Positions 32,904 to 59,618 of a stretch of 64,000 nt of DNA are shown piece by piece; position 1 is the stretch's first letter, and every line of letters starts with the position of its first letter. The notes beneath the pieces are model-generated. The model was not told the DNA's origin, ran no database searches, and saw only the letters and a list, made by a program, of their open reading frames with translations. The position numbers were made by a program, and so were the translations under genes. The DNA comes from Planctomycetaceae bacterium (GTDB lineage Bacteria; Planctomycetota; Planctomycetia; Planctomycetales; Planctomycetaceae). The stretch is taken from contig JBGTSJ010000007.1 of the NCBI GenBank assembly GCA_041940305.1, forward strand, positions 1 through 64,000, in the 5' to 3' direction.

Positions 32904-34853
32904 TCAGCCCTTCGCCGACAGCAGGCCTCGCAACTCCCGAATCGCCCCGTCCACCTCGCGGTACGCCCCCGACTCAGGCAACCCAGCCGCCCGCTGAATC
33001 TCCTCTCCCAGCGTCCCCAGCAGTTCCTCATTGAGCAGCCCCCACAGCCACGCCCCGCGCCGCGCCGTAAACGCCGCGTGCAGTTGCCGCAGCTTGGCTT
33101 CGACATAACCCGACCCCGTCGCGGCTCCTTCGCTGATTACGGTCTCTCCCACCGCCGCCGTGATCGTTCCCCCCAGCACGTCGCTCGCCACGTGCATCGC
33201 CCCGGTCGCCGCAAAGTCCGGCAGCGGAATCCCGCTGATGAACAGCACCACGCTGGTCACCGGCCGGGCCGCCGCCGCCGCCATATCCAGCCGCCTCACC
33301 ATGTTGAAATGCCGCGGACTCTCCTCCCGAAAGTTCGACAACTGTCGCCGCACTACGTCTTCCAGTTCCGCATCCAGATTCACCGCGCGATGCGCCGCTT
33401 CAACTTTCGACAGCAGCGCACTCCGCGACGTCCCGCTCAACAGTCGTTCCAGCCGCTCACGCAGCACCGAGTTCCCCATCTCCGACACGAACGCCAGTCG
33501 TTCATAGATCCGCTCGACCGTCGTCAGGATCGCCGACCACTCCTGCCGGCGGTACGCCTCCCACGGCGACTCCGGCTTCCCCTGGATCACATCCCGCGCC
33601 GCCTTCACCGGCCAGATGATCCCCTGCCCGACGACGTTGTAAAACCCGTGCACCTTCGCCGACCACCCCTCCCGCTGCCCGCGCCACCAGTTGCGGACCT
33701 CGCCGATCAGCACCGCATTTGGCACCGGCGGCCACGCCGATACCCGCTCCGCCTGATGCGGCAGCAGCATCTCCGCCGCCGACCGGAACTCCCGCGAAGC
33801 CGCCGCCACCTCCGCCAGATACCCCGGCGCACCATCCGGCCGCACCACCCGCTCCAGCGCTCCGCGCAACGCCCGCAGTTTCACATCGGCAAACCGCAAC
33901 CGCGAAAGGTCCGCCATAATATTCCGCGCCGCCCCATCCGCATCCCCCCTCTCCCCGCCACGCCGCTCCCCACTCTCATTCCGCTCCACGCGGGGAGAGG
34001 GGCCGGGGGTGAGGGGCAACTCACCGTCGGCCGCGATCCTCGTTGAGTCGCCGCTAAGCGGTGTTGAGTCGCCAAACGCCCGCTCATAAAAGGGCAGTCG
34101 CAACCCCTCCGCCCCCCGACGGTCATTCGGCGCCACATACAACCATTCGGGCCTCACCCCCGTCTCGCGCATAAACGTCTCCAGCCAACGCGGCCAGAAC
34201 TCCTCATCCTCCGGCAGCAGGCACTGGTTGAACAGCACCACCACCCCCTTGTCTTCCGCCGCCGCATGCCGGAAGAACTCCTTCACCGCCGCGTCGTTGT
34301 ATTTCTGCTGCGTCAGCACCGCGATCAACAGGTCCGCGCACTGCCGGATATGATCCGCCCGCTCCCAGTTAATCCGCGCATCGCTGTCCACATCGGGGGT
34401 GTCCAGCACCAGCAGGTTCTCCGGCGTCGCATCGCTCTCCCGCCAGTAGAGGCGGTGGGCATCCGTCTCATCGAGCGCCGCCTCCGCCCGCTCCCACGGA
34501 ATCAACTCGAACCCCGGAAACACCGCCGCCAGGTCGTGTCGCTCCGCAAACCCCCGCGGCACGATGCACACCGGATGCTTCGTCCCCGAGGCCAGCGGAC
34601 TCGAAGCGCTCGCCTTCTCCCCGGCGATGTGGTTGAACACCACGCTCTTGCCGATGTTCGTCCCCCCGACGACCGCCACCACCAGGTAGGCATCATCGGT
34701 CAACTGCGGAATCAGCTTCCGCTCCAGCAGCTCAAACCACTCCCGCCCCGCCAGCCCCCGCACCCCCGCACCCCGGCTCTCCTCCTCCACCCGCAAGAGC
34801 GCATCCCGCAACCCCCGCACCGCCTCAGCAAACTCATCAAATGCGGCTGGCAT
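32904..34853 (-). CDS. Membrane-anchored dynamin-like P-loop GTPase, paralog 2
   Basis: P-loop VVGGTNIGKSVVFNHIAG. LLVLDTPDVDS. The start at ATG 34853 (MPAAFDEFAEAV) is preferred because the 28 upstream codons translate palindromic repeat E. A 72-bp family-2 palindrome is in-frame at 33945-34016. Confidence 0.68.
   Translation of the reverse strand: MPAAFDEFAEAVRGLRDALLRVEEESRGAGVRGLAGREWFELLERKLIPQLTDDAYLVVAVVGGTNIGKSVVFNHIAGEKASASSPLASGTKHPVCIVPRGFAERHDLAAVFPGFELIPWERAEAALDETDAHRLYWRESDATPENLLVLDTPDVDSDARINWERADHIRQCADLLIAVLTQQKYNDAAVKEFFRHAAAEDKGVVVLFNQCLLPEDEEFWPRWLETFMRETGVRPEWLYVAPNDRRGAEGLRLPFYERAFGDSTPLSGDSTRIAADGELPLTPGPSPRVERNESGERRGGERGDADGAARNIMADLSRLRFADVKLRALRGALERVVRPDGAPGYLAEVAAASREFRSAAEMLLPHQAERVSAWPPVPNAVLIGEVRNWWRGQREGWSAKVHGFYNVVGQGIIWPVKAARDVIQGKPESPWEAYRRQEWSAILTTVERIYERLAFVSEMGNSVLRERLERLLSGTSRSALLSKVEAAHRAVNLDAELEDVVRRQLSNFREESPRHFNMVRRLDMAAAAARPVTSVVLFISGIPLPDFAATGAMHVASDVLGGTITAAVGETVISEGAATGSGYVEAKLRQLHAAFTARRGAWLWGLLNEELLGTLGEEIQRAAGLPESGAYREVDGAIRELRGLLSAKG
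33945..34016. repeat. Family-2 palindromic element P4, in-frame inside GTPase paralog 2
   Basis: CCCCCCTCTCCCC-(38 bp)-GGGGAGAGGGGCCGGGGGTGAGGGG. The right arm is an exact reverse complement of P2's left arm. It encodes PLTPGPSPRVERNESGERRGGERGDADGAARN. Confidence 0.85.
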
Positions 34854-34863
34854 GAGGCACGAA

Positions 34864-35094
34864 GGGGGTACGCAGATGACGCAGATGCAGAGGATTGACG
34901 CAGATGCTGCGCAGGTCTTGAAGGACGGCAGAAACACTAATAGCCGCTAATCTACGCTAATTCCTGCATGAGTGTCGATTAGCGGTGATTAGCGTTCCCC
35001 TCTTCGCTTTTTTTTCCATCCCGTCGTTCGCTGTCCGCCGTCACCTCTTGAAATCCGCGTCAATCCGCCCCATCCGCGTCATCCGCGGCCCCCC
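34864..35094. repeat. Family-1 palindromic element, copy E, 231 bp, with nested internal inverted repeats
   Basis: Arms GGGGGTACGCAGATGACGCAGATGCAGAGGATTGACGCAGATGC and GAAATCCGCGTCAATCCGCCCCATCCGCGTCATCCGCGGCCCCCC. The core carries CCGCTAATC...GATTAGCGG inverted repeats. It overlaps the last 11 codons of the PVC dehydrogenase gene. Confidence 0.9.
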
Positions 35095-38000
35095 TTCCCT
35101 CCACCCCCAGCGACTCGAGGTACGCCAACAGGTCGCGGAACTCCTGCACCGTCATCCGCTCCCACAGTTTCTCCGGCATCACCGACACCCGCTGCGGCAC
35201 CCGCTCCTCGATCTCATACGTCGAGATCTCCGTCGTCCGCCCCTCGCTGTCCCCCAGCACTGTCCGCCCCTCGTTCTCATGCACGATCATCCCCGTATGC
35301 ACCACGCCGTCCGTGGTCAGCATGTTCCACGTCGTAAACTGCGGCGACACGTCCTTGCTGGGCTCCAGGATCGAATCGATCAGCTTCTCCCGCGTAAAGC
35401 TCCGCCCCACATAAGATAAATCCGGCCCCACCCGCCCCCCGCGCCCTTCAACGGTGTGGCACTTGTAACAACCGGGCCCGTTGGGGTGATAGAACACGCG
35501 GCGACCGGAGGCGACTGGATCAATGCCGGTACTCGAGCGAAGCTCCTCGTAATCGGAGGTTACCGGCAACAGCTCGGCCTTCCAGACTTCGATACGCTGA
35601 GGACGTTTGCTCCATGCCTCCTCATACATGTTGAAGCGAGCGTCATCCGCTGGCGCTGCGAGATAAAGCTGCTCCAGCCACTCCTGCAGGCTCCATGGAT
35701 TGCCGGAGTAGGCGTTCAACGAGCCTGCCACTTCGTCGCGAATTCGCTCATCAGATCGCGAGAGCGGCCGGAGTGAGCGAATCGCCGCCATTGCGAAATC
35801 GAAGTCCGAGCGCAGGAACTCCGTCAGCGCGGCCGTGGCTGGCTGATTGCCGCCGCCTTGAGCCGCGATCTTGGATAAGCCGAGCATGGCTTCTTCCACC
35901 AGAGCTGAGTATCGCGAGCGGGCCAGGCTCAGTTCAGCAAACTCGGCTTCGCTCAGTTCATCAATGGCTGCGTCGCTGAGACCGGATTCGTCGAACGGAT
36001 CCGGCTGCTTCGCTACCTCAATCAATAGCCCCTCCACTTCTTTGAGCGGCGACTCGCACAGCGACCGTACCGTCTCCAGCCGCAGATCAAAGTCGTCGCT
36101 CGCCAGCAACGCTTTCCACACGTCGATCGTGAGTTGCGGATCATCCGCCTCCACCAGCCGCAGCGCCTGCACCTTCACCGCATCCGGCGTCTCGGCATTC
36201 GTCAGCAGCGGCACAACATATTTCCCGATCGGCGCCTGCTCAAACTCCCGCGGACTCCGCCCATCCAGCATGTCCAGCGCCGCGATCGTCGCCAGAAACA
36301 ACTCCGTCGTCATCGGCTCGCTGGTGAGCACCCCCTCCACCTGCGGCCGCAATTCGGAAAGCCCCTCTTCCGCCGCCCACTGGACCGCGATGCGTCGGAC
36401 CTCGGGATCAGTATTAGCAATTGCGATCCGCAGAAACTCGTCGTCCTCTGCAAACGCGCGCCGCACCGCCAGCACCAAGACACATCGTGATGCAGACGAG
36501 ATCTCTCCAAGTCGCCGCCTCACAATTTCATCGCCGAACGTACGAGGTTCTCGATTCGCAATCGCCATTCGAAAGTAGATCCTGAGTTCCTCCTTATCCC
36601 GGGCGAGCGAGTCCACGAGGGCCGATGCCAGATTCTGAGGAATCTGCTCACGCTGTAGCTGATGAATCCTGAGAGTGCGCGCCTGCTCAAGTGGATGGCC
36701 GCCGTTGGAAAAGAACGCGGCGACGCTTCGCGATTCCCATGATTCGTACTTATCTGGCAACGTAGCGTTCCTCGGCCAGAGGAGCATGTAGTTCCAGTCG
36801 CGGTAATCCCGCACAGGACATTGAGGCACGCGACCGATGACTCTCATCATAGCGGTGCGCACTTCGTCCAGGGGCCAATGGATCACATTGGACTCTGTGC
36901 CGGTAAACCCGTAGTCAAATTCCTCAATTGGAACTTGAACGGCCTGCCAGGCAGCTTCGACTCGAGCGCGTGCGCTTAACGAACCATCATTCAGGATGTC
37001 GCTCAGCTTCTCTCGACCGTCGGCAGTTCCTCGCAATTGTTTCGCCGCGAGGCGTCGCATCGTCAACTGCCGTGAATTGAGCATTTTCGCAAGTGTTCCA
37101 ACTTCCAGTTCCGCGGATCCTCCGTCGCCACCGGAATCTTCCTCAGGCCGGGTCGGCGGCGGCTTCCCGCTAAACGGCGGATCGACGGCGCTGATCCGCC
37201 ACACCCGCCCATGCCCGTGCAGGTTGTAGTCCCGCTTCACCCAGTCGGTGCAATACAGGCTGCCGTCCGGAGCAAGCGCCAGTCCCACCGGTCGGAAATC
37301 CTCACCCCCCACGACCAGCGGCTCCGCAATCGACTCGAACGACGCACCCCGCGGCTGCAGCCGGAACCGGTCGATCCGGTGATCCCCCCAACTCGTCACC
37401 AGCAGGTTGCCCAGATACTCCTCCGGAAACGCATCGTGCTCATACGCCACAATCCCGCTCGGAGCTTCCCCCGTCCCTGCCACCATCGGCAGCGTCCCCG
37501 GGATCTCCCCGTTCCAGGCGGTAAACGGATGCTGCCCCTTGCGGCCGTTGCGGAACTTGTACCCGTAGTCCCCCCCTTCGATGACATGCAGCAACCGGCA
37601 CGGCGGCCTGCTGTCCGGATCGTTATCAACCGTGAACAACCGCCCGAACGCATCCACGCACGAAGCATGCGGATTCCAGAACCCGGTCGCCCAGTGGGAG
37701 AGCTGCGTCCCATCCGGCCGCATGCGGTAGATGTTGCCCCCCTCGCCACCGCCGGTGAGGGCCAATGAGCCGCGACCGGAAGGGAGCGGCCCGTCGGTCG
37801 CACCGGCGTCGTCGTCAATTTCTAGGCCGCTTCCCGCCGGGCGCGGCTCTTTGAGCGACTCTCGACCAACAAGCGTGTAGTCCTCGCCCAGATTCTCCCC
37901 GAACCCGAAGTACATCCACCCCAGCGCATCAAACGCAAACCCCGCCAGCCCGTTATGCGGATAGTTCCCCTTCGTCTCCAGCCGCGCCAGCACCGTCTGC

Positions 38001-38548
38001 CGATCGCACACATCATCCCCGTCCAGGTCCTCCAGCAGCAGAATCTCCCGCCGCGTCGCCAGAAACACCTGCAGCGGGTGCTGAGAGCCGCGACCGGCAG
38101 GGAGCGGTTCGGCGGTGGGATCATCGTCCATCTCCGGGCCGCTTCCCGCCGCGCGCGGCTCCTTCCCATCTCCATCGACCATCGTCTCTCGACCATCGAC
38201 CCTCACCGCGTCCATCCACACTGGCCGCACCGCCACGCTCATCGCATGCGTGAACCCGTCCGTGAATACCCGCACGTCATCCGCTCGCCCGTCCCCGTCG
38301 GTGTCCGCCATCACCAGCAGCCGGTCGCTCGGATGCCCGTCATATCCCTCCGGCCGGAAGTGCGTATTGCTCTCAATGGCCCACACGCGCCCCCGCGCAT
38401 CCACATCCATCCCCGTCGGCGTCCGAATCTGAGGCTGCTCCGCAAACAGCTCGATCCGAATCCGCGCATCCACCGATCGCGGCCCTTCCTCTGCCGAGCT
38501 GACCGAGCACGCACACAACACCAGTCCGACGACGCAAAGTCTGAGCAT
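35060..38548 (-). CDS. PVC-type membrane-bound dehydrogenase domain plus HEAT repeats plus C-terminal CxxCH haem-binding domain protein (TIGR02604/TIGR02603-like)
   Basis: Signal peptide MLRLCVVGLVLCACSVSSA. An N-terminal beta-propeller dehydrogenase-like region, HEAT-like repeats and a C-terminal CYKCH haem-c motif. The last 10 aa (GAADDADGAD*) are encoded inside palindromic repeat E. Confidence 0.85.
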   Translation of the reverse strand: MLRLCVVGLVLCACSVSSAEEGPRSVDARIRIELFAEQPQIRTPTGMDVDARGRVWAIESNTHFRPEGYDGHPSDRLLVMADTDGDGRADDVRVFTDGFTHAMSVAVRPVWMDAVRVDGRETMVDGDGKEPRAAGSGPEMDDDPTAEPLPAGRGSQHPLQVFLATRREILLLEDLDGDDVCDRQTVLARLETKGNYPHNGLAGFAFDALGWMYFGFGENLGEDYTLVGRESLKEPRPAGSGLEIDDDAGATDGPLPSGRGSLALTGGGEGGNIYRMRPDGTQLSHWATGFWNPHASCVDAFGRLFTVDNDPDSRPPCRLLHVIEGGDYGYKFRNGRKGQHPFTAWNGEIPGTLPMVAGTGEAPSGIVAYEHDAFPEEYLGNLLVTSWGDHRIDRFRLQPRGASFESIAEPLVVGGEDFRPVGLALAPDGSLYCTDWVKRDYNLHGHGRVWRISAVDPPFSGKPPPTRPEEDSGGDGGSAELEVGTLAKMLNSRQLTMRRLAAKQLRGTADGREKLSDILNDGSLSARARVEAAWQAVQVPIEEFDYGFTGTESNVIHWPLDEVRTAMMRVIGRVPQCPVRDYRDWNYMLLWPRNATLPDKYESWESRSVAAFFSNGGHPLEQARTLRIHQLQREQIPQNLASALVDSLARDKEELRIYFRMAIANREPRTFGDEIVRRRLGEISSASRCVLVLAVRRAFAEDDEFLRIAIANTDPEVRRIAVQWAAEEGLSELRPQVEGVLTSEPMTTELFLATIAALDMLDGRSPREFEQAPIGKYVVPLLTNAETPDAVKVQALRLVEADDPQLTIDVWKALLASDDFDLRLETVRSLCESPLKEVEGLLIEVAKQPDPFDESGLSDAAIDELSEAEFAELSLARSRYSALVEEAMLGLSKIAAQGGGNQPATAALTEFLRSDFDFAMAAIRSLRPLSRSDERIRDEVAGSLNAYSGNPWSLQEWLEQLYLAAPADDARFNMYEEAWSKRPQRIEVWKAELLPVTSDYEELRSSTGIDPVASGRRVFYHPNGPGCYKCHTVEGRGGRVGPDLSYVGRSFTREKLIDSILEPSKDVSPQFTTWNMLTTDGVVHTGMIVHENEGRTVLGDSEGRTTEISTYEIEERVPQRVSVMPEKLWERMTVQEFRDLLAYLESLGVEGRGAADDADGAD
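37767..37849. repeat. Family-3 palindromic element, copy 1, in-frame inside the PVC dehydrogenase gene
   Basis: GAGCCGCGACCGGAAGGGAGCGGCCCG-(31 bp)-GGCCGCTTCCCGCCGGGCGCGGCTC. It encodes [28 protein letters not shown] on the minus strand. Confidence 0.85.
38084..38162. repeat. Family-3 palindromic element, copy 2, in-frame inside the PVC dehydrogenase gene
   Basis: GAGCCGCGACCGGCAGGGAGCGGTTCGGCGG-(22 bp)-CCGGGCCGCTTCCCGCCGCGCGCGGCTCC. It encodes [30 protein letters not shown] and lies 317 bp from copy 1 in the same orientation. Confidence 0.85.
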
Positions 38549-38644
38549 CCGTCCCCTCCCAACACGTTTAGCCGCGACTCGAAGAGCGCGCCCCCCTCTA
38601 AGGTACCTCCAACACGTTAAACAAGGTCCCCACAATCCCCTCCC

Positions 38645-38715
38645 CCTGACCTCCGAGCCCCTGACCTCCGAGCCCCTGACCTCTGACCTCTGACCTCTGT
38701 CCTCTGTCCACCGAC
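38645..38715. repeat. Degenerate TGACCTC (GAGGTCA) heptamer / 15-mer tandem repeats in the 5' region of the PVC dehydrogenase gene
   Basis: (CCTGACCTCCGAGCC)x2, then TGACCTC x3, then TGTCCTC and TGTCCAC. This is the reverse complement of the (AGAGGTC)n tract at 54764 and it reads GAGGTCA toward the downstream gene at both loci. Confidence 0.85.
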
Positions 38716-38729
38716 CCCTGACTCCGTCC

Positions 38730-39611
38730 TCACTCCCCTGCCACCCGCTTCACAAACTCAAACAACGCTTCCGACGGCGCATCCCCATCCGTCCCCAGGT
38801 TGTCGTTCAGCTTCACATGATCCGTGTCCCGCGCCCCGTACGGCGTCGAGTCGATCCCCGCCTCGCTCAGCACATTGTGCAGCCGCCGCGCCTGCGCCGA
38901 GACGTCCGGATGATTGCTCACGTACAGAATCAGAAACGGCGGAATCCCCTTCTCGGGCGCGATGTGCGTCACCGTCGAGAAGTCCACGTGCTTCTCCGGG
39001 TCGTTGCCGAACTTCTGACGATGCCCGAATGTCGGCAGCGGGAATCCATGAGCGCGGCAGCGGACTTCCGCCACTTCGATGATCGCCGGGATGTCGTACG
39101 TGTCCCCGTCCACCGGCACGCACCCCTTCAGCACCGACGGCGACACCCCTTCCGCCTCGATGTATCGGTGATCGCAGCACAGCAGCGCCGCCAGCTGCGC
39201 CCCCGCCGAGTGCCCCATCACGAGGATCCGCTCCGGGTCCCCGCCGTACTCGGCGATATGCGCATGCACCCACCCCAGCGCCTTGGCCACGTCCTGCACC
39301 AGCGTCTCCATGTCCACGTCCGGCAGCAGGCGGTAGTTCGTCGACACGAACACCAGCCCCCGCTCCACGAACGCCCGCGGCTTCGCTTCCACCTCCGACT
39401 TGTCCCCCACCTGCCAGCCCCCGCCATGAATCCAGAACACCACGGGCGCCCCGCGCGCATCATCCGGCGCATAAATATCCAACACCTGCCGCTCTCCCGC
39501 CGGCTCCGCATACGGCACGTCCTGCACCACCACGTCTCCCCGCACCGCAGGTACGAGAATGCACAACGCTCCCACCACCAGCGCACACAACGCGAACTGA
39601 TTCCGCATCAC
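38730..39611 (-). CDS. Secreted alpha/beta-hydrolase-fold esterase/lipase (Abhydrolase_3-like)
   Basis: Signal peptide [23 protein letters not shown]. Oxyanion HGGGW ([14 protein letters not shown]). Nucleophile elbow GHSAG ([10 protein letters not shown]). Confidence 0.85.
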
Positions 39612-39702
39612 CCGGCTCCCCTGTTTGAGAACGACCCTTCACGACAACAAGTCCGATCATCCACGCTTACGAGTGCGAATCCATCCGCCGAGCCGTGGCG
39701 CT

Positions 39703-42265: not shown

Positions 42266-42765
42266 CCAAATCCCACAACAGTGAGCGTGCCACTCCGATT
42301 TGCCAGTAAAACAGAGTATCAAAGCCCGCGACCCCTTCCAACAAGGCTGATTCGTCGTCCCAGGGCAACCAACTTCGGCCAGCGTTGCCCTGCTTATTCC
42401 GGATCAGTCTCGGTTGACAAATCACCGTCCGCCGCCCCTGAGATCGGGCAAGCAGGCCACCGGCCTGGACGCCCGGATTCAGTCATCCTGGGGCGTATTC
42501 GATACGGGAGCAGTTGCTCAGCGCCCCGACGGGGAAAGCCGTCGCACGGGACACGTAACCCGGCGTTGCTGCGCTTGCCGATTGATTTCGGGCTGAGGCG
42601 CCGTCGCGACCATTCCGATCGCCAATGTCGACCGCTCCCGGAATGCGGTGATGGTCAGCGCGATGTCGAGACCGGCCTCAGGCGCTCGGCGACGGGTCGA
42701 CAGTGGCCTGCCACCGCGATGGGCTCCACCGTGCCAGGGAAGTCGTGTCAGCGTACGATTGTGGC

Positions 42766-43674: not shown

Positions 43675-43897
43675 GAGATAGCATCGGTGCCTCTCCAAGG
43701 TGAGCTGTGATGCCTTGTCCCGAAGAACCAGACGAACGGAGATCGAAGCGACAGCCGGAACTGGGTTGGTACCACGTCATTAATCTGCTGCTCTGCGTGC
43801 TCGCGCGACGCGATCATCGCCGGTTCTGCGTCGCCAAGGCTGATACAGCCGTGCCCCCTCGTCTCTTCTCGCGTCTTTGAGCCTCAGCGACCTGGCG

Positions 43898-43922
43898 TCG
43901 CTCTTCCCCTCTCCCCTCTGCA
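43898..43922. repeat. Solo C-rich half-site resembling a family-2 arm
   Basis: TCTTCCCCTCTCCCCTCTGCACCC, with no G-rich partner nearby. Confidence 0.4.
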
Positions 43923-44217
43923 CCCAATTCGCGCACACCACCGCGCAACTCCCCCTAATCAGGTAGACCGCCAGATCGGCCACCGGAGCCGCGCGATGCC
44001 TGATCTCCCACTGACCAGTTTCTCACAAACTGGCGGCAACTTTGCGAAAACTTATCACCAACCTGGCCACCCCCCCCACACCCCGCGCAAGTTGAAAAGT
44101 GGAAAGTTGCCCAACCCCCAGGCACTTCGCCACGCAACCGGACGCCCCGAATTCCCCCAACTTTTGATTTCGTTGTACGAACTTCCAATACGGGATAGAC
44201 TTCATGCGTAATCTCCG

Positions 44218-45924
44218 ATGAAAATGGGCAACAACCGGGCGCGGAGACCGTCCGCGCCGGCTTCCACTTGCCTGCAAGACGGGACGGCTGTCATGAGCGA
44301 GTTCCCCCAGTCGCAGCGGCTGCTTCAGCGGGTCATCTGGCGGATGTACGCCGTGCGGCTTGCCCGGCGCGTGTTCGTGTGGTTCGTCGTGGCGGCCACG
44401 CTGTATGCGATCGCGCTGCTCACCGCCCGGCTGACCGGGTTGATCACGGACGTTTTCGCGCCCGAGACGCTGTGGTTCATCCCCGCGGCCGCGGTGGTGC
44501 TGGGACTGCTCTCGACCCGCCGCCCGAGCCTGGAAGACGCGGCCCGCCGTACTGATACCGGCCAGGGAACGAAGGACCTGTTCCTCACGCTGACGATGCT
44601 TGACCGGTGCGCGGGCGAGTACAAGCCGCTGGTGGGCCGCGATGCCGAGCAGCGTGCCAAGGCACTGCACGCCGAGCAGGTTGTTCCGTTCGACTGGCAG
44701 AAGCCGTCGCTGCTGGGAGGGGTCGTTGCGCCGGCGACCATCGGCCTGCTGGCGCTGGGGATCTTCTTCCTGCCGTCGCTCGATCCGTTCGCGGTCCAGG
44801 CGCAGGCGAAAGAGGAAGCGACGCGCGCCGAGCGGCTGGCCGAGTCCCGCAAGGAGACGGAGGTCCGCCGCGCCCAGCTGACGCAGCGCAAGGAAACCGA
44901 CGACGAGAACTCGGAAGAGGTCGCGCAGGCGCTGGAGCGGCTGCAGGCGGACTTCCGCAAGATGCGCAAGGACCAGAAGATCCCCAACGCCGAGCGGCTG
45001 GCCGTGAATCAGAAGGACCTTGGCGAGAAGTGGCGGAAGCTCAACGCCGAGCAGCTCAAGCAGCTGATGAACTCGGAGAACCTCGACCAGCGGTTTGGCG
45101 GCGAGGACGCCGAGCAGTTCCGCGAATGGCAGAAGGAGCTGCAGCAGGGTTCGGCGGACGCGCTGGAGCAGGCGATGGAGGAACTGAAGGAAGACCTGCA
45201 GCAGCTGGCGAAGACGGATGATCCGGTCGAGCGCAGCGAGATGAAGCGGAAGATCGAGAAGCAGCTGCGCGAGATGTCGGAGTTCGCGGCGAACGAGGCC
45301 GGTTCGCCGCAGCTGGCGGCCGCGCTGCAGCGGGCGATGGACCAGATGGAGGCCATGCAGAACAGCGAATCCGAAGCGCTGGAGGCGGAAGCGCTGGCGG
45401 CGATCCAGGAGTCGATGGAGCTGGCGCAGATGGAGGCGCAGGAACTGGCTCAGGCCGCGCGCGACCTCCAGTCGCTGGAGGAGGCCCTCAATCTGATCAG
45501 CATGGCCAAGCAGCTGAACGCTGAGGAGATGCTGGACGGGGAGAGCGCCGAGGCCGCACAGTCACTGGCCGATTACGCCGAGATGTATGCGCAGATGATG
45601 GCCGACATGCAGGGGATGGGCGAACTCGGCGGCGAAGGATTCGGCGAGGGGGGCGAGGCGCCGGAGGATGAAACGGTCGAGACCGAGTTCGTCGACGAGA
45701 CTTCGAAGTCGGCGATTCAGAAGGGGAAGATCCTGCTGTCGATGAAGACGAAGGGGCTCAGCGACACGGGAGAGGCGGTGAAGGAGTACCGGGACGCCAT
45801 TGAAGACGTGAAGCAGGGAGCGGCCGAGGCCATCGAGCAGGAGGAAATTCCTCCCGGGTACATCGAGGCGATCCAGAAGTACTTCGACAAGATCGAGACC
45901 GTTGATGCCGCCGAGCCGCAGTAG
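44218..45924 (+). CDS. Membrane-anchored coiled-coil protein of unknown function
   Basis: Two N-terminal TM helices (VFVWFVVAATLYAIALLTARL and WFIPAAAVVLGLLST). A long E/Q/A/K-rich coiled coil follows, then an acidic C-terminus. Confidence 0.6.
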   Translation: MKMGNNRARRPSAPASTCLQDGTAVMSEFPQSQRLLQRVIWRMYAVRLARRVFVWFVVAATLYAIALLTARLTGLITDVFAPETLWFIPAAAVVLGLLSTRRPSLEDAARRTDTGQGTKDLFLTLTMLDRCAGEYKPLVGRDAEQRAKALHAEQVVPFDWQKPSLLGGVVAPATIGLLALGIFFLPSLDPFAVQAQAKEEATRAERLAESRKETEVRRAQLTQRKETDDENSEEVAQALERLQADFRKMRKDQKIPNAERLAVNQKDLGEKWRKLNAEQLKQLMNSENLDQRFGGEDAEQFREWQKELQQGSADALEQAMEELKEDLQQLAKTDDPVERSEMKRKIEKQLREMSEFAANEAGSPQLAAALQRAMDQMEAMQNSESEALEAEALAAIQESMELAQMEAQELAQAARDLQSLEEALNLISMAKQLNAEEMLDGESAEAAQSLADYAEMYAQMMADMQGMGELGGEGFGEGGEAPEDETVETEFVDETSKSAIQKGKILLSMKTKGLSDTGEAVKEYRDAIEDVKQGAAEAIEQEEIPPGYIEAIQKYFDKIETVDAAEPQ

Positions 45925-45965
45925 GGGCCGCGGATGACGCGGATCGGGGGGATTGACGCAGATCT
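45925..45965. repeat. Family-1 half-copy F (left arm only)
   Basis: GGGGCCGCGGATGACGCGGATCGGGGGGATTGACGCAGATC, located directly after the stop of the coiled-coil gene. No recognisable right arm is present. Confidence 0.8.
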
Positions 45966-46014
45966 GGACAGGGCGGCACGCGGGGACGCGGGTGACCGGC
46001 AGATCGTGGGGATC

Positions 46015-47049
46015 ATGAGGGCTCCGATTTCGCCCGGCCGGATATGGCCGTGCTGCATCCTGCTGGCCGCAGTTCTCGCCGTGGGCTGTCCCGGGTCGGG
46101 GCCGGAGGGGGACCCTCTGGTCGTGTACTGCTCGCACGACTCGATCTACTCGGAAGAGGTGCTGCGGCGGTTTGAGGAGGAGACCGGGGTGCCGGTGTCG
46201 GTGAAGTTCGACACCGAAGCGACCAAGTCGCTGGGGCTGGTCAATCTCCTCATCGCGGAGAAGCAGAACCCGCGGTGCGATGTGTTCTGGAACAACCAGT
46301 CGCAGAGCACCGTGCAGCTGGAAGATGAGGGAGTGCTGCTCCCCTATACCGGTTCCGGTTACGAGCGGATCCCGGGTTCGTTCAAGGATTCGGAAGGACA
46401 CTGGGCGGGGTTCGGAGCGCGGCTGCGGGTGTTTATCGTCAACACCGACAACATGGAGCCGAGCGAGGAGGCGATCGCCGAGCGGCTGGCAGCCGACGAT
46501 CTGTCCCGAGTCGCGATGGCGAAGCCGCTGTACGGCACCACGCTGACCCAGTATGCGGTGCACTGGCATCAATGGGGGCCCGAGAGGGTGCAGGAGTGGC
46601 ATCGGGACTTGCGGGCGCGCGGCCTGCGGGAGGCGAGCGGCAACGGGCAGGTCAAGGACTTGGTCGCGGCGGGCGTGTGCGACTTCGGCTGGACCGACAC
46701 TGACGACTTCTACGTCGCGGAGGACGCCGGGATGCCGGTGGCCATGGTGCCGGTCCGCGTCGACGGCGGCGCGACGATCTCCATTCCGAACACGGTCGCG
46801 CTGATCCACGGATCGAGCATCGTCGAGCAGGCGCAGCAGCTGGCGGATTATCTGCTGTCTGCGGAGAACGAGCTGGCGCTGTCGCGCTCGAAGGCGCGGC
46901 AGATCCCGCTGGGGCCGGTGGACGAGTCGCAGCTGCCGGACGACGTGCGGCAGCTTAAGGAATGGGCGGCGGACGGGTATGATCTGAACCAGCTCGCGGC
47001 GGCGCACCGCGAGTGTCTCGACTGGCTGAAGACGGAGTACCTGGAGTGA
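46015..47049 (+). CDS. ABC transporter periplasmic substrate-binding lipoprotein, Fe3+/FbpA-AfuA-type family
   Basis: Lipobox CCILLAAVLAVGCPGS. SBP core LVVYCSHDSIYSEEVLRRFEEETGVPVSVKFD...GLVNLLIAE...DVFWNN. Confidence 0.78.
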   Translation: MRAPISPGRIWPCCILLAAVLAVGCPGSGPEGDPLVVYCSHDSIYSEEVLRRFEEETGVPVSVKFDTEATKSLGLVNLLIAEKQNPRCDVFWNNQSQSTVQLEDEGVLLPYTGSGYERIPGSFKDSEGHWAGFGARLRVFIVNTDNMEPSEEAIAERLAADDLSRVAMAKPLYGTTLTQYAVHWHQWGPERVQEWHRDLRARGLREASGNGQVKDLVAAGVCDFGWTDTDDFYVAEDAGMPVAMVPVRVDGGATISIPNTVALIHGSSIVEQAQQLADYLLSAENELALSRSKARQIPLGPVDESQLPDDVRQLKEWAADGYDLNQLAAAHRECLDWLKTEYLE

Positions 47050-48650
47050 GCCTGACGGCGGCCTGCGGTTGGACGCTCTGCCGCGCCGTGCTGGTCGCTC
47101 TCCTCGTCCTGCCCGCGGCCTGGGGACTGCGCAGCCGGCTGGACGGCATGCGTCCCGGACAGCGCACGCTCCTCTGGACGCTGCTGCTGACGGCGTTCTT
47201 CACTCCGGCCCTGCTGACCGGCTACGCCTACTCCAAGTGGTCGCTGGCGCTGATCCGCTATCCGCTGTGGAACGAAGCGCTGTACGCCGCCCTGCTCACG
47301 TTCCGGCTGATCCCTGTGGGCGGCATCATTCTGCAGTTCTGCCCCCCGCCGCCGCTTTCGCCGGAGGGACTGCACTGCGCGCGGCTGGCGGCGGAGCGAA
47401 GCGGCGGTCCGGTCCGGCTGCGGTTTCTGCTGCCGTTCGCGATGCGGGGCGAGATGCGGAATGCGCTGCCGGTGTTCTGCGTGGTGTGGCTGCTGGCGTT
47501 CCAGGAGTTCGAGACGGCGTCGCTGATGGGGACGGCATCGTGGACGGTCTGGCTATTCGATGCACAGGCCGGCGGGATCATCCTCGGAGAGTCGCTGGAC
47601 CGAGCACTGTTGCCGATGGCGTGCCAGCTGCTGGTGATTGGATTGTTCGCCGTGTTTGCACTGCAAAGCCGCCGGCTGCCGTCGGCGCGGCGGCGGGAAC
47701 CGGGGAGAGTGTCGCCGCTGCGGGACGCCGCGGCCTGGGGGGTCGCGGTCGCGGCGGCGGCCGTGGCGACCTTCATTCCCCTGATGCTCCTCGGGCGGGA
47801 TGCCGTACAGGGGATCTCCGGGATGTTGCGAAGCCGGGAGATGGTCCGTGAGATCGGGATTGCCGGGGCGTTTGGACTGGTCTCGGGACTGGCGGCGGCG
47901 GCACTGGCGTACGGAGTGCGGCGGGGAATGGATCGAGTGCGGGGGGCGCGAGCGACGGTTGGCGATGATGGCCTTCAGGTTGATCGCGGAGCGAAGACTG
48001 AAATGGCCCCTCAACCCCGGCCCCTCTCCCCGCATGAGGCGGCGTGGGGTGGCACGCTTGGCAGCGGGGAGAGGGGGGAAGCGAACGGAACGCGTTCTCT
48101 GCGGAACGCCGGGCCGGGATGGATCATGGCGTGTGTGGGGCTGGCGGCGATGCTGCCGGGTCTGCTGGGATCGCTGGTGGTGAGCCTGGTGGTGTTGCGG
48201 GCGTTCCAGTGGCCGGTGCTCAACACGTTGTACGACACGCCGCTCCCGGCCGTGGTGGCGCTGGTGTGGTACCTGCTGCCGCGTGCGGTGCTGCTGCAGC
48301 TACTGTTCGGCGCGCTCAGCCGGCAGTCGAATGCGCATGCGGCGGCGCTGCTGGCGCACTCGGCTTCGGTTCATCAGCGACGGGCCGGGGGGGAACTCGT
48401 CTGGCGATTGCGGTGGCGATACCAGTTCCTCGCGGCGGGGATCCTGTGCGTGTGGGGTTATCTGGAACTGACGCCGGTGGCGATCCTCGCGCCGCCCGGC
48501 ATGACGTCTGCGCCCGTGCGGCTGTACAACCTGATGCACTATGGCCGCAGTTACGTGGTGGCGGCGATGACGCTCGTCGCGATGGCGGTGCCGCCGGCGG
48601 TGCTGGTGGCGGCGGGAGGGGTCAGGCGGGTGTGGGCGGCAGTGCGGTGA
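47046..48650 (+). CDS. ABC transporter permease with two fused transmembrane domains, FbpB-like
   Basis: The GTG start overlaps the SBP stop (GTGA). About 12 TM segments in two halves. A 72-bp family-2 palindrome is in-frame in the inter-domain loop at 48007-48078. Confidence 0.78.
   Translation: MSLTAACGWTLCRAVLVALLVLPAAWGLRSRLDGMRPGQRTLLWTLLLTAFFTPALLTGYAYSKWSLALIRYPLWNEALYAALLTFRLIPVGGIILQFCPPPPLSPEGLHCARLAAERSGGPVRLRFLLPFAMRGEMRNALPVFCVVWLLAFQEFETASLMGTASWTVWLFDAQAGGIILGESLDRALLPMACQLLVIGLFAVFALQSRRLPSARRREPGRVSPLRDAAAWGVAVAAAAVATFIPLMLLGRDAVQGISGMLRSREMVREIGIAGAFGLVSGLAAAALAYGVRRGMDRVRGARATVGDDGLQVDRGAKTEMAPQPRPLSPHEAAWGGTLGSGERGEANGTRSLRNAGPGWIMACVGLAAMLPGLLGSLVVSLVVLRAFQWPVLNTLYDTPLPAVVALVWYLLPRAVLLQLLFGALSRQSNAHAAALLAHSASVHQRRAGGELVWRLRWRYQFLAAGILCVWGYLELTPVAILAPPGMTSAPVRLYNLMHYGRSYVVAAMTLVAMAVPPAVLVAAGGVRRVWAAVR
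48007..48078. repeat. Family-2 palindromic element P1, in-frame inside the ABC permease inter-domain loop
   Basis: CCCCTCAACCCCGGCCCCTCTCCCC-(35 bp)-GGGGAGAGGGGGG. It encodes MAPQPRPLSPHEAAWGGTLGSGERGEANGT. Confidence 0.85.
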
Positions 48651-48814
48651 CGGCGGCCAGAGCGCTTTGCAGAACTGTGCTTCGTGTACCGCAGACGGTC
48701 CAGGTCCACGTTTGCACGTGCCAGTCCATTTGCCGGGGTTTCGGTGCCGAGCTTACCAACCAACGTATTTTGGTACAGCGGGGCGCGTGATGGCTGCTCG
48801 CCCGTGTAGGCGGG

Positions 48815-49192
48815 GTGTCGGCTTCGTCTTTCACGGGTTATATCGCCGGGCAGACGACGCCCTCCCAGCAGGCGGCCACCGGGGGATGCACGGCAATGAT
48901 GCGACTGCGGCTATCACTCTGGATCGCGCTCACGTTCATTCTGACGCCCACGATGTGCTTTATCGCGTGGTTAGTCGGGTATGGTCCCGGTGGTCTCCGC
49001 GAGTTTCGCAGCGGATACATGCTACCCGACCTGGTCTGGACGATGATCATCCTTGGTGTGATTAACTTCGTCAGCGTGTTCGCATCGGACACGCCCAAAG
49101 GCCAATTCATTGCAGTCTTTGCCGTGGGCGTGCCGTTCCTGCTCGCATTGCTTTACTGGTTCGGCATTGCAGCAGCCATCGCACACGTGTAG
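48815..49192 (+). CDS. Small hypothetical membrane protein
   Basis: 3 hydrophobic helices (LWIALTFILTPTMCFIAWLVG, WTMIILGVINFVSVF, AVFAVGVPFLLALLYWFGIAAAIA). The start is uncertain. Confidence 0.4.
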   Translation: MSASSFTGYIAGQTTPSQQAATGGCTAMMRLRLSLWIALTFILTPTMCFIAWLVGYGPGGLREFRSGYMLPDLVWTMIILGVINFVSVFASDTPKGQFIAVFAVGVPFLLALLYWFGIAAAIAHV

Positions 49193-49385
49193 TGCAGAAC
49201 ACAAAACGCAGGGCAGGCTGATGGGCCACCCGGCGTGCGTGGGTTATGGTGGTGGGCTGCGGGCTACTTGGGGAGCCTGTACCGGCCATCATCGTCCCGC
49301 ACGATGTGTCCAATGAACCGAGCTGATGTGCGCTGCGCCGCGTCGTTACCCGGCATGAATGCCGGGCCGACTACAGAAGGTGTCA

Positions 49386-49401
49386 CATGGAGATCTCCAT
49401 G
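49386..49401. promoter_or_regulatory. Perfect 16-bp palindrome CATGGAGATCTCCATG in a relatively AT-rich stretch upstream of the ABC ATPase gene
   Basis: Seen directly. It lies in the 560-bp gap between the small membrane ORF and the ABC ATPase. It is a candidate dimeric regulator site. Confidence 0.35.
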
Positions 49402-49539
49402 CATCGCCCGTATTGTCCATGCATAACGCCACAGACTGAACTGCGAACCGCTCCAGGAGGGGGGGAAAGCGATCCAACGGACGTGGGGGATGAGGCGTAG
49501 TGGTGGGAACGGGATTGGGGGCGCGGGCGGTGCGTTGTG

Positions 49540-49620
49540 CCCTCACCCCCGGCCCCTCTCCTGCGATGGTGCGGTACTGTCATTGACACTGTTCGCGCGG
49601 GAGAGGGGGGTACTTCATGC
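49540..49620. repeat. Family-2 palindromic element P2, intergenic
   Basis: CCCTCACCCCCGGCCCCTCTCC-(46 bp containing TTGACA)-GGGAGAGGGGGG, located upstream of the ABC ATPase gene. Confidence 0.85.
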
Positions 49621-49752
49621 GGCGGAATGGAGACTGGCGGGGGGTGGCGATACAATTCAGACACATTGTGTGAAATGCAGGATCGCCGGACGATTCCGTC
49701 CGCGTGCGGTCCGGCAGCGGCTGGGAGCGAACAGCGGAGTCGGGTCGCCTGA

Positions 49753-51666
49753 TTGCGGTCCGGCCGACGGGACCCTATGACGACCGCGCTCTGGCAACTG
49801 ACGGAGGTTACTCTCCGGGGACGGGACCGTCCCCGACTGGACGGGATCTCTGTCGAGATTCCGCGCGGCGTCTGCGCCGTGATGGGACACTCCGGCGCCG
49901 GCAAGACGTCGCTGCTCAATCTGCTGGTAGGGTTTGAGCGGGCGGATGCCGGGAGAATCGTCCGCGTGAACGGGAACGGCGGGGGGACGGAGAGAGGGGG
50001 AGATGGAGAGAACGATTCGAAGTCTCCCCCTCTCTCCATCGCCCCGTCTCTCTCGCCTCCCTCACTCGCCGTCTACTGGGTGCCGGCTGATGACGGGCTG
50101 TGGCCGCATCTGACTGTGCGACGGCATCTCGCGGCGGTGACCGAAGATGAAATTCGGATTGCGAACCTGCTGCGCGATTTCGATCTGGGTGAACTCGCCG
50201 CTGCGCGGCCGGCGACGCTGTCCGAAGGAGAGCGGTCGCGGCTCTCGGTCGCGCGGGCGCTGGCGACGGGAGCACGCGTGCTGGTGATGGACGAGCCGCT
50301 GGTGCACGTGGATCCGATGAGGATGGGCAAGTACTGGGACGCGGTACGGCAGCACTGCGGGAAGAGCGGCACCTCGCTGGTGTTTGCGTCGCATCATCCA
50401 GAAACGGTGCTGCGCGAGGCGGAGCGAGTGATCTGTCTCGATCGTGGACGTATCGCCTGGCAGGGGGCCGTCCGCGAACTGTATGAGCAGCCGCCCACGC
50501 CGGAACTGGCGATGTTCCTCGGTCCGGTCAACTGGCTGGAGGCGGGGGAGGCCGCGGAGTGGCTGCAGCAGGCACGCCCGGGCCCGCTGGCGTTACGGCC
50601 GGAGCGGCTGCGGATCGAAGCGGTCGGGGAGAGCCCGATCGTCGTCGAGGAGACGCGGTTCAGCGGGGCGTATGCCGAGGTGGATCTCAGGAACGAGCGG
50701 ACGGGCAGTCGGCGACGGATGGTGCATCGTCCGGTCGCCGGAGCCTTGCGACGCGGGATGCGTGTGGCACTCGGCGCGACGCTGGGGCTGTTGCTGGCCG
50801 TCAGCGCGGGCTGCACCGTGCAGAGCGCCGAAGCGAAGCTGCCGGTGAAGCCGGTGCGGGTCGAGTCGCTGCCGGTGGAGGACGGGTTCCTGCCGGCGCC
50901 GCGGTCGATGGACATCGGACCGGACGGGCAGCTGTACGTGCTGGACGACGCCGGCCGCGTCATCATCTATGCGGCGGACGGATCGCTCGTGCGGACATGG
51001 TGGATGCCGGAGTACTCGGTCGGCCGCCCGGAGGGGATCGAAGTCCTGCAGGACGGGCGGCTGGCGATCGCCGATACCCATTACCACCGCGTGCTCATCT
51101 GCGACCAGGAGGGGACAGTACTGCAGATGTGGGGTGAAGAGGGGGAGGAGCCGGGGCAGTTCATCTTCCCGTGCGACGTGGCACAGGACCCTGAGGGGAA
51201 CCTGTACGTCTCCGAGTACGGCGGAAACGACCGCGTGCAAAAGTTCACGATCGAGGGGGAGTTCCTGCTGGAGTTCGGCGAACCCGGGACCGGGCCGGGG
51301 CAGTTCCAGCGGGCCAGCGGACTCGACTGGCATGACGGCACGGTCTACGTCGCGGACGCGATCAATAACCGCGTGCAGGCGTTCTCGGCTGAGGGGAAGC
51401 GGCAGCCGTGGGGCGGGGAGCAGCCGCCGGAACTCGATTATCCGTATGATCTGCGGATCCTTCCCAATGAGAGGATGCTGGTCGTCGAATACAAGTCGGG
51501 ACGGGTGACACTGCTGACGCTGGATGGCACAGTGCTGGGCCGCTACGGCAGTACGGGCCGCGGCGAGGGAGAATTCTGGACGCCGTGGGGGCTGGCCGCG
51601 ACCGAGGAGGGACGGCTGGTTGTCGCGGATACGGGGAATCGCAGGATCGTGGAGCTCGCCCTGTGA
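49753..51666 (+). CDS. ABC transporter ATP-binding protein (FbpC-like, with a TOBE-like C-domain) read in-frame into an NHL-repeat beta-propeller lipoprotein-like domain
   Basis: Walker A GHSGAGKTSLLNLL. Signature LSEGERSRLSVARAL. Walker B VLVMDEP. At about aa 336 an internal lipoprotein signal MRVALGATLGLLLAVSAGC is followed by NHL/YD-like repeats (YVSEYGGNDRVQKF, VYVADAINNRVQAF, LVVADTGNRRIVEL). There is no stop between the two parts. Confidence 0.75.
   Translation: MRSGRRDPMTTALWQLTEVTLRGRDRPRLDGISVEIPRGVCAVMGHSGAGKTSLLNLLVGFERADAGRIVRVNGNGGGTERGGDGENDSKSPPLSIAPSLSPPSLAVYWVPADDGLWPHLTVRRHLAAVTEDEIRIANLLRDFDLGELAAARPATLSEGERSRLSVARALATGARVLVMDEPLVHVDPMRMGKYWDAVRQHCGKSGTSLVFASHHPETVLREAERVICLDRGRIAWQGAVRELYEQPPTPELAMFLGPVNWLEAGEAAEWLQQARPGPLALRPERLRIEAVGESPIVVEETRFSGAYAEVDLRNERTGSRRRMVHRPVAGALRRGMRVALGATLGLLLAVSAGCTVQSAEAKLPVKPVRVESLPVEDGFLPAPRSMDIGPDGQLYVLDDAGRVIIYAADGSLVRTWWMPEYSVGRPEGIEVLQDGRLAIADTHYHRVLICDQEGTVLQMWGEEGEEPGQFIFPCDVAQDPEGNLYVSEYGGNDRVQKFTIEGEFLLEFGEPGTGPGQFQRASGLDWHDGTVYVADAINNRVQAFSAEGKRQPWGGEQPPELDYPYDLRILPNERMLVVEYKSGRVTLLTLDGTVLGRYGSTGRGEGEFWTPWGLAATEEGRLVVADTGNRRIVELAL
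49988..50068. repeat. Family-2-related palindrome P3, in-frame inside the ABC ATPase domain
   Basis: GGAGAGAGGGGGAGA-(18 bp)-TCTCCCCCTCTCTCC, a perfect 15-bp stem, plus a CT-rich tail. It encodes an atypical insertion GGGTERGGDGENDSKSPPLSIAPSLSPPS between the Walker A strand and the Q-loop. Confidence 0.75.
50758..51666 (+). CDS. Alternative model: NHL-repeat lipoprotein translated separately from the internal ATG 50758
   Basis: The lipobox LLLAVSAGC lies directly after this ATG. Five or six NHL-type repeats follow. Confidence 0.45.
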   Translation: MRVALGATLGLLLAVSAGCTVQSAEAKLPVKPVRVESLPVEDGFLPAPRSMDIGPDGQLYVLDDAGRVIIYAADGSLVRTWWMPEYSVGRPEGIEVLQDGRLAIADTHYHRVLICDQEGTVLQMWGEEGEEPGQFIFPCDVAQDPEGNLYVSEYGGNDRVQKFTIEGEFLLEFGEPGTGPGQFQRASGLDWHDGTVYVADAINNRVQAFSAEGKRQPWGGEQPPELDYPYDLRILPNERMLVVEYKSGRVTLLTLDGTVLGRYGSTGRGEGEFWTPWGLAATEEGRLVVADTGNRRIVELAL

Positions 51667-54752: not shown

Positions 54753-54763
54753 GGTCGGAGGGC

Positions 54764-54898: not shown

Positions 54899-54991
54899 AA
54901 CGCCGCTAACGCGGCGTGAATGCCGGGCCTAATACAGGAACGCAATTCGCAACACGCGTACCACCGATAACCGATTAGCCAATTACCCACC

Positions 54992-59426: not shown

Positions 59427-59446
59427 GGCGTAGGTCAGGGAAACAA

Positions 59447-59586: not shown

Positions 59587-59618
59587 TCCTTTCACGTCGT
59601 TCGCAATCACCCCTTCCT

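Follow-up and report, generated by a model that had tools for sequence, protein, structure and literature searches.

A short dispersed palindrome with BoxC/PIT/TMECO-like blocks lies in frame in two unrelated genes of a Planctomycetaceae bacterium

Among the dispersed repeats described in bacteria, the one closest to a short G/C-rich palindrome found in three full copies (A, B and C) in a 64,000-nt stretch of a Planctomycetaceae bacterium (positions 1 to 64,000 of contig JBGTSJ010000007.1, assembly GCA_041940305.1; hereafter the window) is the motif CCCTCNCCC-N3-6-GGGNGAGGG-N3-GGGNGAGGG, named BoxC, later PIT and later TMECO (Bachellier; Hoyne and Maher 2000, 2002; Holder et al. 2015, PMC4666352). 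Its second loop reads TTA in type A and CCG in type B, CCCTCGCCCCTCCGGGGAGAGGGCCGGGGTGAGGGG being an example of the latter (PMC4666352, Table 1). A total of 3610 copies was counted in 262 proteobacterial genomes, and the 23 copies of Escherichia coli MG1655 are all intergenic (PMC4666352). Single strands of the motif form a purine-motif triplex in vitro, none having been detected in vivo; no transposase is associated with it, its sites show raised local variability between strains, and in E. coli it has neither promoter nor terminator activity nor a link to gene function (PMC4666352, for the last points citing Hoyne and Maher 2002).

Repeats that lie in frame within bacterial genes are uncommon but already known. 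The Rickettsia palindromic elements (RPEs; Ogata 2000, 2002; Claverie and Ogata 2003), ~100-150 bp long, A/T-rich and confined to Rickettsia, occur in frame in unrelated, apparently functional genes and add short peptides where surface loops are expected. The GTAG/CGTC repetitive extragenic palindromes (REPs) are short, mainly intergenic hairpin repeats, a minority of which lie in frame in known proteins of several phyla as inserts of ~20-30 aa, thought to fall in linkers or loops; many intragenic copies are in replication and repair genes, and the highest GTAG REP count is that of Opitutus terrae, a member of the Planctomycetes-Verrucomicrobia-Chlamydiae (PVC) superphylum (Di Nocera et al. 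2013, PMC3733652). In these REPs a GTAG or CGTC tag stands beside the stem, and the GTAG class is tied to REP-associated tyrosine transposases (RAYTs). Very short mobile palindromic units that nest and are occasionally intragenic are also said to have been described in cyanobacteria, by Elhai et al. in 2008 and as the Nezha miniature inverted-repeat transposable elements (MITEs).

We read copies A-C as a REP-like family of short non-coding dispersed palindromes carrying BoxC/PIT/TMECO blocks and passively tolerated in protein loops, and give this reading a probability of about 0.72.

Three copies of one repeat, two of them within genes

Copies A and B are intragenic and copy C is intergenic, the start of an ABC ATPase gene lying ~170 nt downstream of it (Table 1). 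They have in common a left arm of 28 nt (GCCCCTCAMCCCCGG + CCCCTCTCCCCGC) and, beyond a variable loop of ~30 nt, a right arm of 16 nt (GCGGGGAGAGGGGGG); a copy thus runs from the tail GCCCCTCA(C/A)CCCCGG through the stem CCCCTCTCCCCGC, a copy-specific loop and the stem GCGGGGAGAGGGG to a final GG. In blastn-short comparisons the left arm is identical at 27/28 positions between A and B and at 22/22 between A and C, the right arm at 16/16 between A and B, and no similarity was detected outside the arms. These values bear out a preliminary description of this DNA, which had reported nearly identical arms around differing loops and, besides the genic copies, an intergenic one (copy C). The 22-mer CCCTCAMCCCCGGCCCCTCTCC occurs exactly three times in the window (33994-34015, minus strand; 48008-48029 and 49540-49561, plus strand) and had no match in 100 dinucleotide-preserving shuffles of it. 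Each copy is predicted to form a hairpin with a CCCCTCTCCCCGC/GCGGGGAGAGGGG stem of ~13 bp, by a folding tool that covers Watson-Crick and GU pairs alone; these hairpins are just modestly more stable than folds of shuffled sequence, the base composition being extreme to begin with. A solo arm had also been listed; the 11-mer exists, lacks a partner arm and a tail, and is as compatible with a chance match as with the remains of a copy.

Table 1. Features of the window and related features on other contigs (positions refer to the window unless a contig is named).
Feature	Position	Strand	Sequence elements	Context
Copy A	33943..34017	minus	tail GCCCCTCACCCCCGG, stem CCCCTCTCCCCGC, 30-nt loop, GGCGGGGAGAGGGGGG	GTPase linker, in frame, ORF codons ~307-331, peptide PLTPGPSPRVERNESGERRGGERG
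Copy B	48006..48079	plus	GCCCCTCAACCCCGG + CCCCTCTCCCCGC, loop, GCGGGGAGAGGGGGG	loop joining the two ABC permease halves, in frame, ORF codons ~332-356, peptide APQPRPLSPHEAAWGGTLGSGERGE
Copy C	49539..49610	plus	GCCCTCACCCCCGG + CCCCTCTCCTGCG, loop, CGCGGGAGAGGGGGG	intergenic
Solo 11-mer	43906..43916	plus	CCCCTCTCCCC	intergenic, no partner arm, no CCCTCACCC tail
Separate ATPase hairpin	49970..50072	plus	long G/A-rich and C/T-rich arms, core GGAGAGAGGGGGAGA/TCTCCCCCTCTCTCC	in frame
GTPase gene	32904..34853	minus		host of copy A; MMR_HSR1 G domain and helical C-terminal domain
ABC permease gene	47046..48650	plus		host of copy B; two-domain Fe3+-type, 100% identical to P0121 (GCA_041941145.1)
ABC ATPase gene fused to NHL repeats	49777..51666	plus		host of the separate hairpin; identical to P0237
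GTPase linkers with P2/P3	L004:5500-5700, L005:3600-3900, L007:1200-1400			relatives of the copy A host
Pfam-supported intragenic copy	L040			CheA linker
Pfam-supported intragenic copy	L126			Ser/Thr kinase-TPR protein
Pfam-supported intragenic copy	L056			PSCyt/PSD1 protein of Schlesneria
Pfam-supported intragenic copy	L130			DUF7133
Pfam-supported intragenic copy	L157			helicase, MrfA/Hrq1-like
Pfam-supported intragenic copies	L165:950-1020			Eco57I-type methylase, two copies
Pfam-supported intragenic copies	L183:12100-12260			PriA, three tandem copies, 63-nt period
Pfam-supported intragenic copy	L190			GT4-GT1 linker
Pfam-supported intragenic copy	L208			HsdM
PurL copy	L176			downstream of the last matched domain

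All three host open reading frames (ORFs) in the window, that of the ATPase included, run uninterrupted through their palindromic element. Copy A lies within an open 677-codon ORF with an MMR_HSR1 G domain, whose start at the Met of MPAAFDEF was inferred from homologues (the stop-free ORF reaches 34937), and copy B within an open ORF of 545 codons whose homologues of ~480 aa are annotated as Fe3+ ABC permeases. The left arm is translated as PLTPGPSPR in copy A and as APQPRPLSPH in copy B, in two different frames, and the right arm as G(G/S)GERG in the same frame in both; the earlier statement that the hosts stay open and read the element in different frames therefore holds for the ORFs and for the left arm, not for the right one. 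Since the same arms are also intergenic and are read in different frames, the repeat is a DNA-level dispersed repeat and not a protein motif.

In the structure models both insertions coincide with segments of low predicted local distance difference test (pLDDT) scores. The permease model has a mean pLDDT of 81 and a sole internal stretch below 50, aa 313-365, which is the insertion; in that of the GTPase (mean 71) the linker between the G and helical domains, aa 290-334, is unstructured with pLDDT below 50 and is one of four low-confidence stretches past the N terminus. According to the models, then, copies A and B are situated in disordered loops or linkers; surface loops had been anticipated for them.

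Both host loops are length-variable in their families and carry unrelated low-complexity inserts in other lineages, as would be expected of ordinary linkers shaped by protein-level selection or slippage, with the DNA symmetry incidental; an assembly artefact is a further conceivable source. However, the arms are shared at the identities given above by unrelated genes and an intergenic site, in different frames, and three independent assemblies, namely a contig of the NCBI metagenome-assembled genome (MAG) GCA_041941145.1 and two SRA-derived contigs, agree with the window at 100% identity. An orthologous copy A is moreover present in contigs from other samples. Cross-locus nucleotide identity and independent assembly together effectively refute this explanation, which we hold to be very improbable. 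Homologues of the window proteins carry Planctomycetaceae annotation.

The ABC ATPase had been named as a third host, carrying a variant form of the element. A strong in-frame hairpin is indeed present there (-63 kcal/mol, z = -4.3); it occupies the loop that leads from the strand after Walker A to the YWxPxDxGLWPHL (Q-loop) region and that is of variable length in all orthologues. It has G/A-rich and C/T-rich arms in common with copies A-C and nothing more: no similarity to them was detected by blastn-short at word size 9, and its interpretation as a diverged copy was rejected on this ground. The same element therefore occurs in two unrelated genes, the GTPase and the permease, and not in three. 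The hairpin thus falls, like A-C, into a wide class of palindromes with G/A-rich and C/T-rich arms, family kinship with A-C being not demonstrable. It is orthologous in contigs L248 and L249 (69% aa identity), where it still folds with three compensatory pairs among 37, and in protein P0273, from another lineage, the same loop is occupied by a 345-nt composite palindrome that includes GGGGAAGAGGGGCCGAGGGGAAGAGGGG, of a TMECO-like GA/CT type. A further ATPase orthologue (L250:3058-4551), adjoining the permease P0150, is split into two gene calls by a change of frame of one base near LPLFW/PPNDGLWPHL, away from any palindrome, which could be genuine or stem from an error in sequencing.

Correspondence with the BoxC/PIT/TMECO motif and its spread

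The arms do not represent a new family; they match the published motif, type B, whose three blocks, CCCTCTCCC...GGGAGAGGG-CCG-GGGTGAGGG, recur here in unchanged order and with almost unchanged sequence (PMC4666352). On the G-rich strand the window copies read GGGGAGAGGGG-CCG-GGGGTGAGGGG in A and C, and B has GGGGTTGAGGGG, with one extra T. With one mismatch allowed, the 9-nt C-rich stem CCCTCNCCC is found in all three, within CCCCTCTCCCC in A and B and as CCCCTCTCCT, with one mismatch, in C. Like BoxC/PIT/TMECO, the copies are dispersed and highly conserved, have no associated transposase and mark local indel hot spots between relatives. They differ in that each block is one base longer, in their Planctomycetaceae host, in that two of the three copies are intragenic, unlike those of MG1655, and above all in the first loop, which is variable and measures ~30-37 nt (36-37 nt between the 9-nt blocks) instead of 3-6 nt. 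The published pattern with its 3-6-nt first loop consequently has 0 matches in the window; when that loop is relaxed to 10-40 nt, copy A matches, B and C having one mismatch each. Read from the sequence, the second G stem obeys the purine-motif code, an antiparallel register giving G*G:C, A*A:T and T*A:T triads alone, and the long-loop form could by this code form a triplex; even for E. coli, triplex evidence is limited to single strands in vitro (PMC4666352).

The same long-loop architecture is present in other Planctomycetaceae contigs (L004, L021, L038, L055 and L098). In one MAG, three copies have loops that are alike on visual comparison (identity not computed), which suggests that the whole ~72-nt unit is repeated.

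In order to follow the motif beyond the window, genomes (one per species) were scanned with the pattern CCCTCACCC-N2-6-CCCTCTCCC-N10-40-GGGAGAGGG and metagenomes with the 22-mer, and each scan recovered at least 120 loci. By record title, the genome matches listed belong to many phyla, among them Alpha-, Beta-, Gamma- and Deltaproteobacteria, Acidobacteriota, Planctomycetota, Verrucomicrobiota and Chloroflexota, with further matches in Nitrospirota, Myxococcota, Omnitrophota, Elusimicrobia, Caldithrix, Spirochaetia and Rokubacteria; some of the long "loops" in Enterobacter are back-to-back motif pairs. Among the metagenome matches listed, those more than 150 nt from a contig end were assigned by stop-free span and a codon-position G+C test: 45 lie outside a long ORF, 37 in a long ORF lacking coding-like composition and 23 in coding-like ORFs, the contig end being too near to judge for a further 34. 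The coding-like share, about one fifth of the evaluable copies listed, is rough, since it derives from the matches listed and a composition-based call, and the call is conservative, as window copy B was misclassified as non-coding. Because most copies elsewhere lie outside coding-like ORFs, the motif is not specialised for coding DNA.

Pfam matches nevertheless place some copies between domains of one protein, or inside a domain (Table 1). The spans on L015 (two PrpD domain sets), L109 (hisC-hisB), L066 and L096 were not counted as in-frame insertions because they resemble read-through over adjacent genes or 5' leaders. The intragenic copies are read as LTPGPSP (8), GEGPGVR (6), GRGAGGEG (6), PSPPAPLP (4) and PHPRPLS (1); all five stop-free frames are thus used and the sixth, with its TGA, never is. 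Their orientation is even, 13 in the sense of the host gene and 12 antisense. An in-frame copy was also seen in a UvrD-like protein (metagenome contig L242), and the occurrences in PriA, an Eco57I-type methylase, the UvrD-like protein, a helicase and HsdM echo the published replication and repair bias, in a sample too small for a test.

Because they are lineage-specific insertions in low-confidence loops and are read in different frames, the window copies resemble RPEs in their behaviour, a resemblance pointed out in the preliminary description that stands for two unrelated genes with disordered-modelled loops. One could go further and see in them a Rickettsia-like selfish element that specifically colonises coding genes and has in-frame insertion as its life style. 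In favour of this, copies A and B, two out of three, occupy unrelated genes in frame, both in such loops, and other palindromic modules, P2 and P3 (see below), lie in frame in the same GTPase linker, the P2 peptide ARPDKGVASV recurring in an ABC ATPase orthologue (P0258). Yet the 22-mer is mostly found outside coding-like ORFs elsewhere (45 plus 37 copies against 23 among those listed) and the E. coli motif always so (PMC4666352); an in-frame state is moreover what survivorship predicts for any insertion into a needed gene when five of six frames are stop-free. Sequence kinship of the G/C-only arms with the longer, A/T-rich Rickettsia elements is implausible, as judged on composition rather than on an RPE consensus, and specialised colonisation of genes is, in our estimation, a distinctly unlikely account.

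The passively tolerated, REP-like family that we prefer is not a GTAG/CGTC REP in the published sense. It shares with those repeats the short hairpin form, the mainly intergenic location and the minority of in-frame inserts, but no GTAG or CGTC tag adjoins its stem, the flanks being TTGC/TGGC on the left and GGAT/GGAA/GGTA on the right, and the RAYT-like genes of relatives have different repeats at their flanks. The cyanobacterial small dispersed repeats and MITEs are likewise short mobile palindromes sometimes found inside coding sequence; they have other sequences, and their terminal inverted repeats or target duplications were not seen here. The two stems of the window repeat are inverted repeats of each other, its 15-nt tail makes the ends asymmetric, and no flank duplication is visible. 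In-frame insertion had been thought unreported for this lineage, a claim too broad given the in-frame REPs known since 2013 outside Rickettsia and in the PVC superphylum (PMC3733652). A narrower one stands: the literature searched yielded no report of the long-loop Planctomycetaceae form, of the exact blocks far outside Proteobacteria, or of a sizeable in-frame intragenic minority for the BoxC/PIT/TMECO motif.

Gain and loss in the host loops

A segment of ~52-54 aa holding copy B is absent from 13 of the 14 permease orthologues aligned. At the DNA level, contigs L248 and L249, ~75-80% identical to the window, have neither copy B nor copy C, and their permease loop measures 53 nt against 215 nt in the window. 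The insertions had been expected to be lineage-specific indels with precise boundaries; they are lineage-specific, and the boundaries in the permease are imprecise because the inserted DNA is roughly two element lengths long and the loop that receives it is poorly fixed in sequence, not being conserved, for which reason a MAFFT alignment of the loop with L248 and L249 was misaligned. Contigs L001-L003, 100% identical to the window, offered no polymorphism for mapping the boundaries. In a distant permease orthologue, P0150 (43% identity), this loop holds a similar though degenerate copy (CCCCCTCACCCC...GTGGGGAAGAGGG), which suggests that the loop is used recurrently. Copy C is lineage-specific too, as the permease-ATPase spacer is merely 287 nt long in L248, against 1175 nt in the window. 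The extra DNA of this spacer (48650-49785) is less G+C-rich by eye and includes an ORF of 98 codons (48896-49192) for a hydrophobic protein with no Pfam match on record.

The GTPase linker that carries copy A varies through the family. Its two closest relatives, on contigs L004 (88% aa identity) and L005 (83%), have an orthologous copy A, and the next relatives have other palindromic modules in its place. In L007 (82%) the CCCCTCAACCC tail alone is followed by a different, nested palindrome, P2 (GGGTGGCACGCCCTGA...TCAGGGCGTGCCACCC; peptide RVARPDKGVAS...), and in L005 copy A is accompanied by P2 sequence, of which the right half alone is present; L004, L005 and L007 share one more palindrome, P3 (GGCCGGACTTGGAAGTCCGGCC; peptide PDLEVRP), that is missing from the window, where P2 and P3 gave matches at chance level only. 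As the combinations of copy A, P2 and P3 differ and every one stays in frame, palindromic modules are evidently still being acquired by, and lost from, this linker. Next to copy A, at 34039-34075, an 11-nt direct repeat GTTGAGTCGCC occurs twice and encodes a duplicated GDST in AFGDSTPLSGDST, not seen in the same form in the closest relatives, and a 29-nt imperfect inverted repeat AACACTAATAGCCGCTAATCTACGCTAAT/ATGAGTGTCGATTAGCGGTGATTAGCGTT, A/T-rich for this genome, lies upstream of the gene (34933-34996).

In the orthologous copy A, 0-1 of the 44 arm nucleotides differ, whereas the remaining gene has diverged by 9-13% (P = 0.002-0.08) and the loop of the copy by 10-13%. Arms steadier than their host gene point either to constraint at the DNA or RNA level or to homogenisation between copies. 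The former would suit a cis-acting signal with a function in RNA or DNA that selection maintains site by site, for example an mRNA hairpin that modulates stability, translation pausing or operon polarity, or a site bound by a conserved protein. Identical 9-11-mers are retained over many phyla, copy C lies inside an ABC transporter operon in the permease-ATPase interval, a classical place for REP mRNA stabilisers, and the ATPase hairpin is preserved with compensatory pairs in 69%-identical relatives. However, gene conversion between copies would conserve the arms equally well, copies appear and vanish between close relatives, and the even orientation of intragenic copies argues against a role specific to an RNA strand. 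Rfam gave no family for the repeat over the whole window at gathering thresholds and, in E-value mode over 47500-50500, just sub-threshold microRNA-hairpin look-alikes at the ATPase hairpin. The motif had neither promoter or terminator activity nor a link to gene function in E. coli (PMC4666352), and no T-run or terminator-like site follows the hairpin of copy C, which was therefore rejected as an intrinsic terminator. A selected signal at each site is thus unlikely, though it retains some arguments in its favour.

Origin of the repeat and neighbouring repeat families

The REP-like reading can be put as a sequence of steps. Along the G-rich strand, CCCCTCTCCCC and the loop are followed by GGGGAGAGGGG, CCG and GGGGTGAGGGG; the pair of complementary blocks may form a hairpin onto which the third, by the purine-motif code, is predicted to be able to fold back. 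Copies at new sites would arise by a process acting on DNA, possibly through a trans-acting enzyme, or alternatively by template switching and gene conversion at structure-prone DNA, and would land mostly in intergenic DNA. Five of the six arm frames are free of stops and encode flexible Pro/Gly/Ser/Glu/Arg peptides, and a copy that falls in frame in a disordered loop or linker would leave the protein intact and could persist. Such loops go on gaining and losing palindromic modules, as seen in the GTPase family. No function is proposed for the inserted peptides.

Several observations weigh against this reading. Besides the first loop longer than published, the in vitro limit of the triplex evidence and the roughness of the coding-like share, ~90 nt of the permease insertion are unexplained by an element half its length, no empty site with exact boundaries was recovered, and the L007 tail with no hairpin is not predicted by simple insertion of whole units. 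Nor was a mobilising enzyme found, there being no Y1 transposase in the window. Contigs L248 and L249 do have a Y1_Tnp (RAYT-like) gene between VWA and MoxR genes (L248:15040-15670, L249:6484-7117), at a site corresponding to window 54752-54992, and it is flanked by inverted REP hairpins, CCCGGCGTTTACGCCGGG and AGCCCCGTTCACGGGGCT, that differ from the window repeat; the window has at this site no transposase and a REP-like remnant, CCCGGCATTCACGCCGCG (54910-54927, minus strand). The Y1_Tnp of contig L213 has hairpins on both sides with GTAG in the flank, hence REP-like, the triplex motif lying ~70 nt farther out. As the cognate REPs of these enzymes are other hairpins, the Y1_Tnp of L248, L249 and L213 were rejected as mobilisers. 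A second REP-like hairpin of the window (49346-49376) lies in the permease-ATPase spacer, near copy C.

A more far-reaching proposal is that some conserved activity of the cell recognises the blocks GGGAGAGGG/GGGTGAGGG/CCCTCTCCC or gives rise to them. It might be a nuclease specific for DNA structure, a pathway of repair or of replication restart, or templated copying, and would seed the motif anywhere, genes included. We regard it as speculative and improbable. If true, bacterial proteins in general would owe new disordered loops and linkers to a source so far unrecognised, this motif, and replication and repair genes (PriA, UvrD, helicases) might be its preferred hosts.

To our knowledge, BoxC/PIT/TMECO has been known for ~30 years with neither a function nor a route of spreading having been found, has been described as intergenic and, as TMECO, as proteobacterial. 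To this the present analysis adds a long-loop form in Planctomycetaceae, conserved blocks across many phyla and a sizeable intragenic minority in all five stop-free frames, and with it a concrete example of structure-prone repeats creating and remodelling disordered protein loops. The orthologous intragenic sites are natural "reporter" copies in which the evolution rates of arms and loop can be compared, and in annotation the strings PLTPGPSP, PSPPAPLP, GEGPGVR and GRGAGGEG in predicted proteins flag a DNA repeat, not a protein domain.

Other repeats also occur in the window. A palindromic family on GATGACGCGGAT/ATCCGCGTCATC, with arms of up to 44 nt (7742-7826, 59440-59593, 9979-10040 and 16205-16346), is probably the one that the preliminary description called family 1. 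A third family consists of a purine-rich unit, GGAGGAAACGGAGGGAACAGAGG, arranged as inverted repeats ~100 nt apart at 3489-3649 and 6777-6931. Finally, a stretch of ~90 nt at 22308-22401 is 77-86% identical to two sites on contig L004 (8553-8626 and 11076-11169), a similarity that suggests another dispersed repeat.

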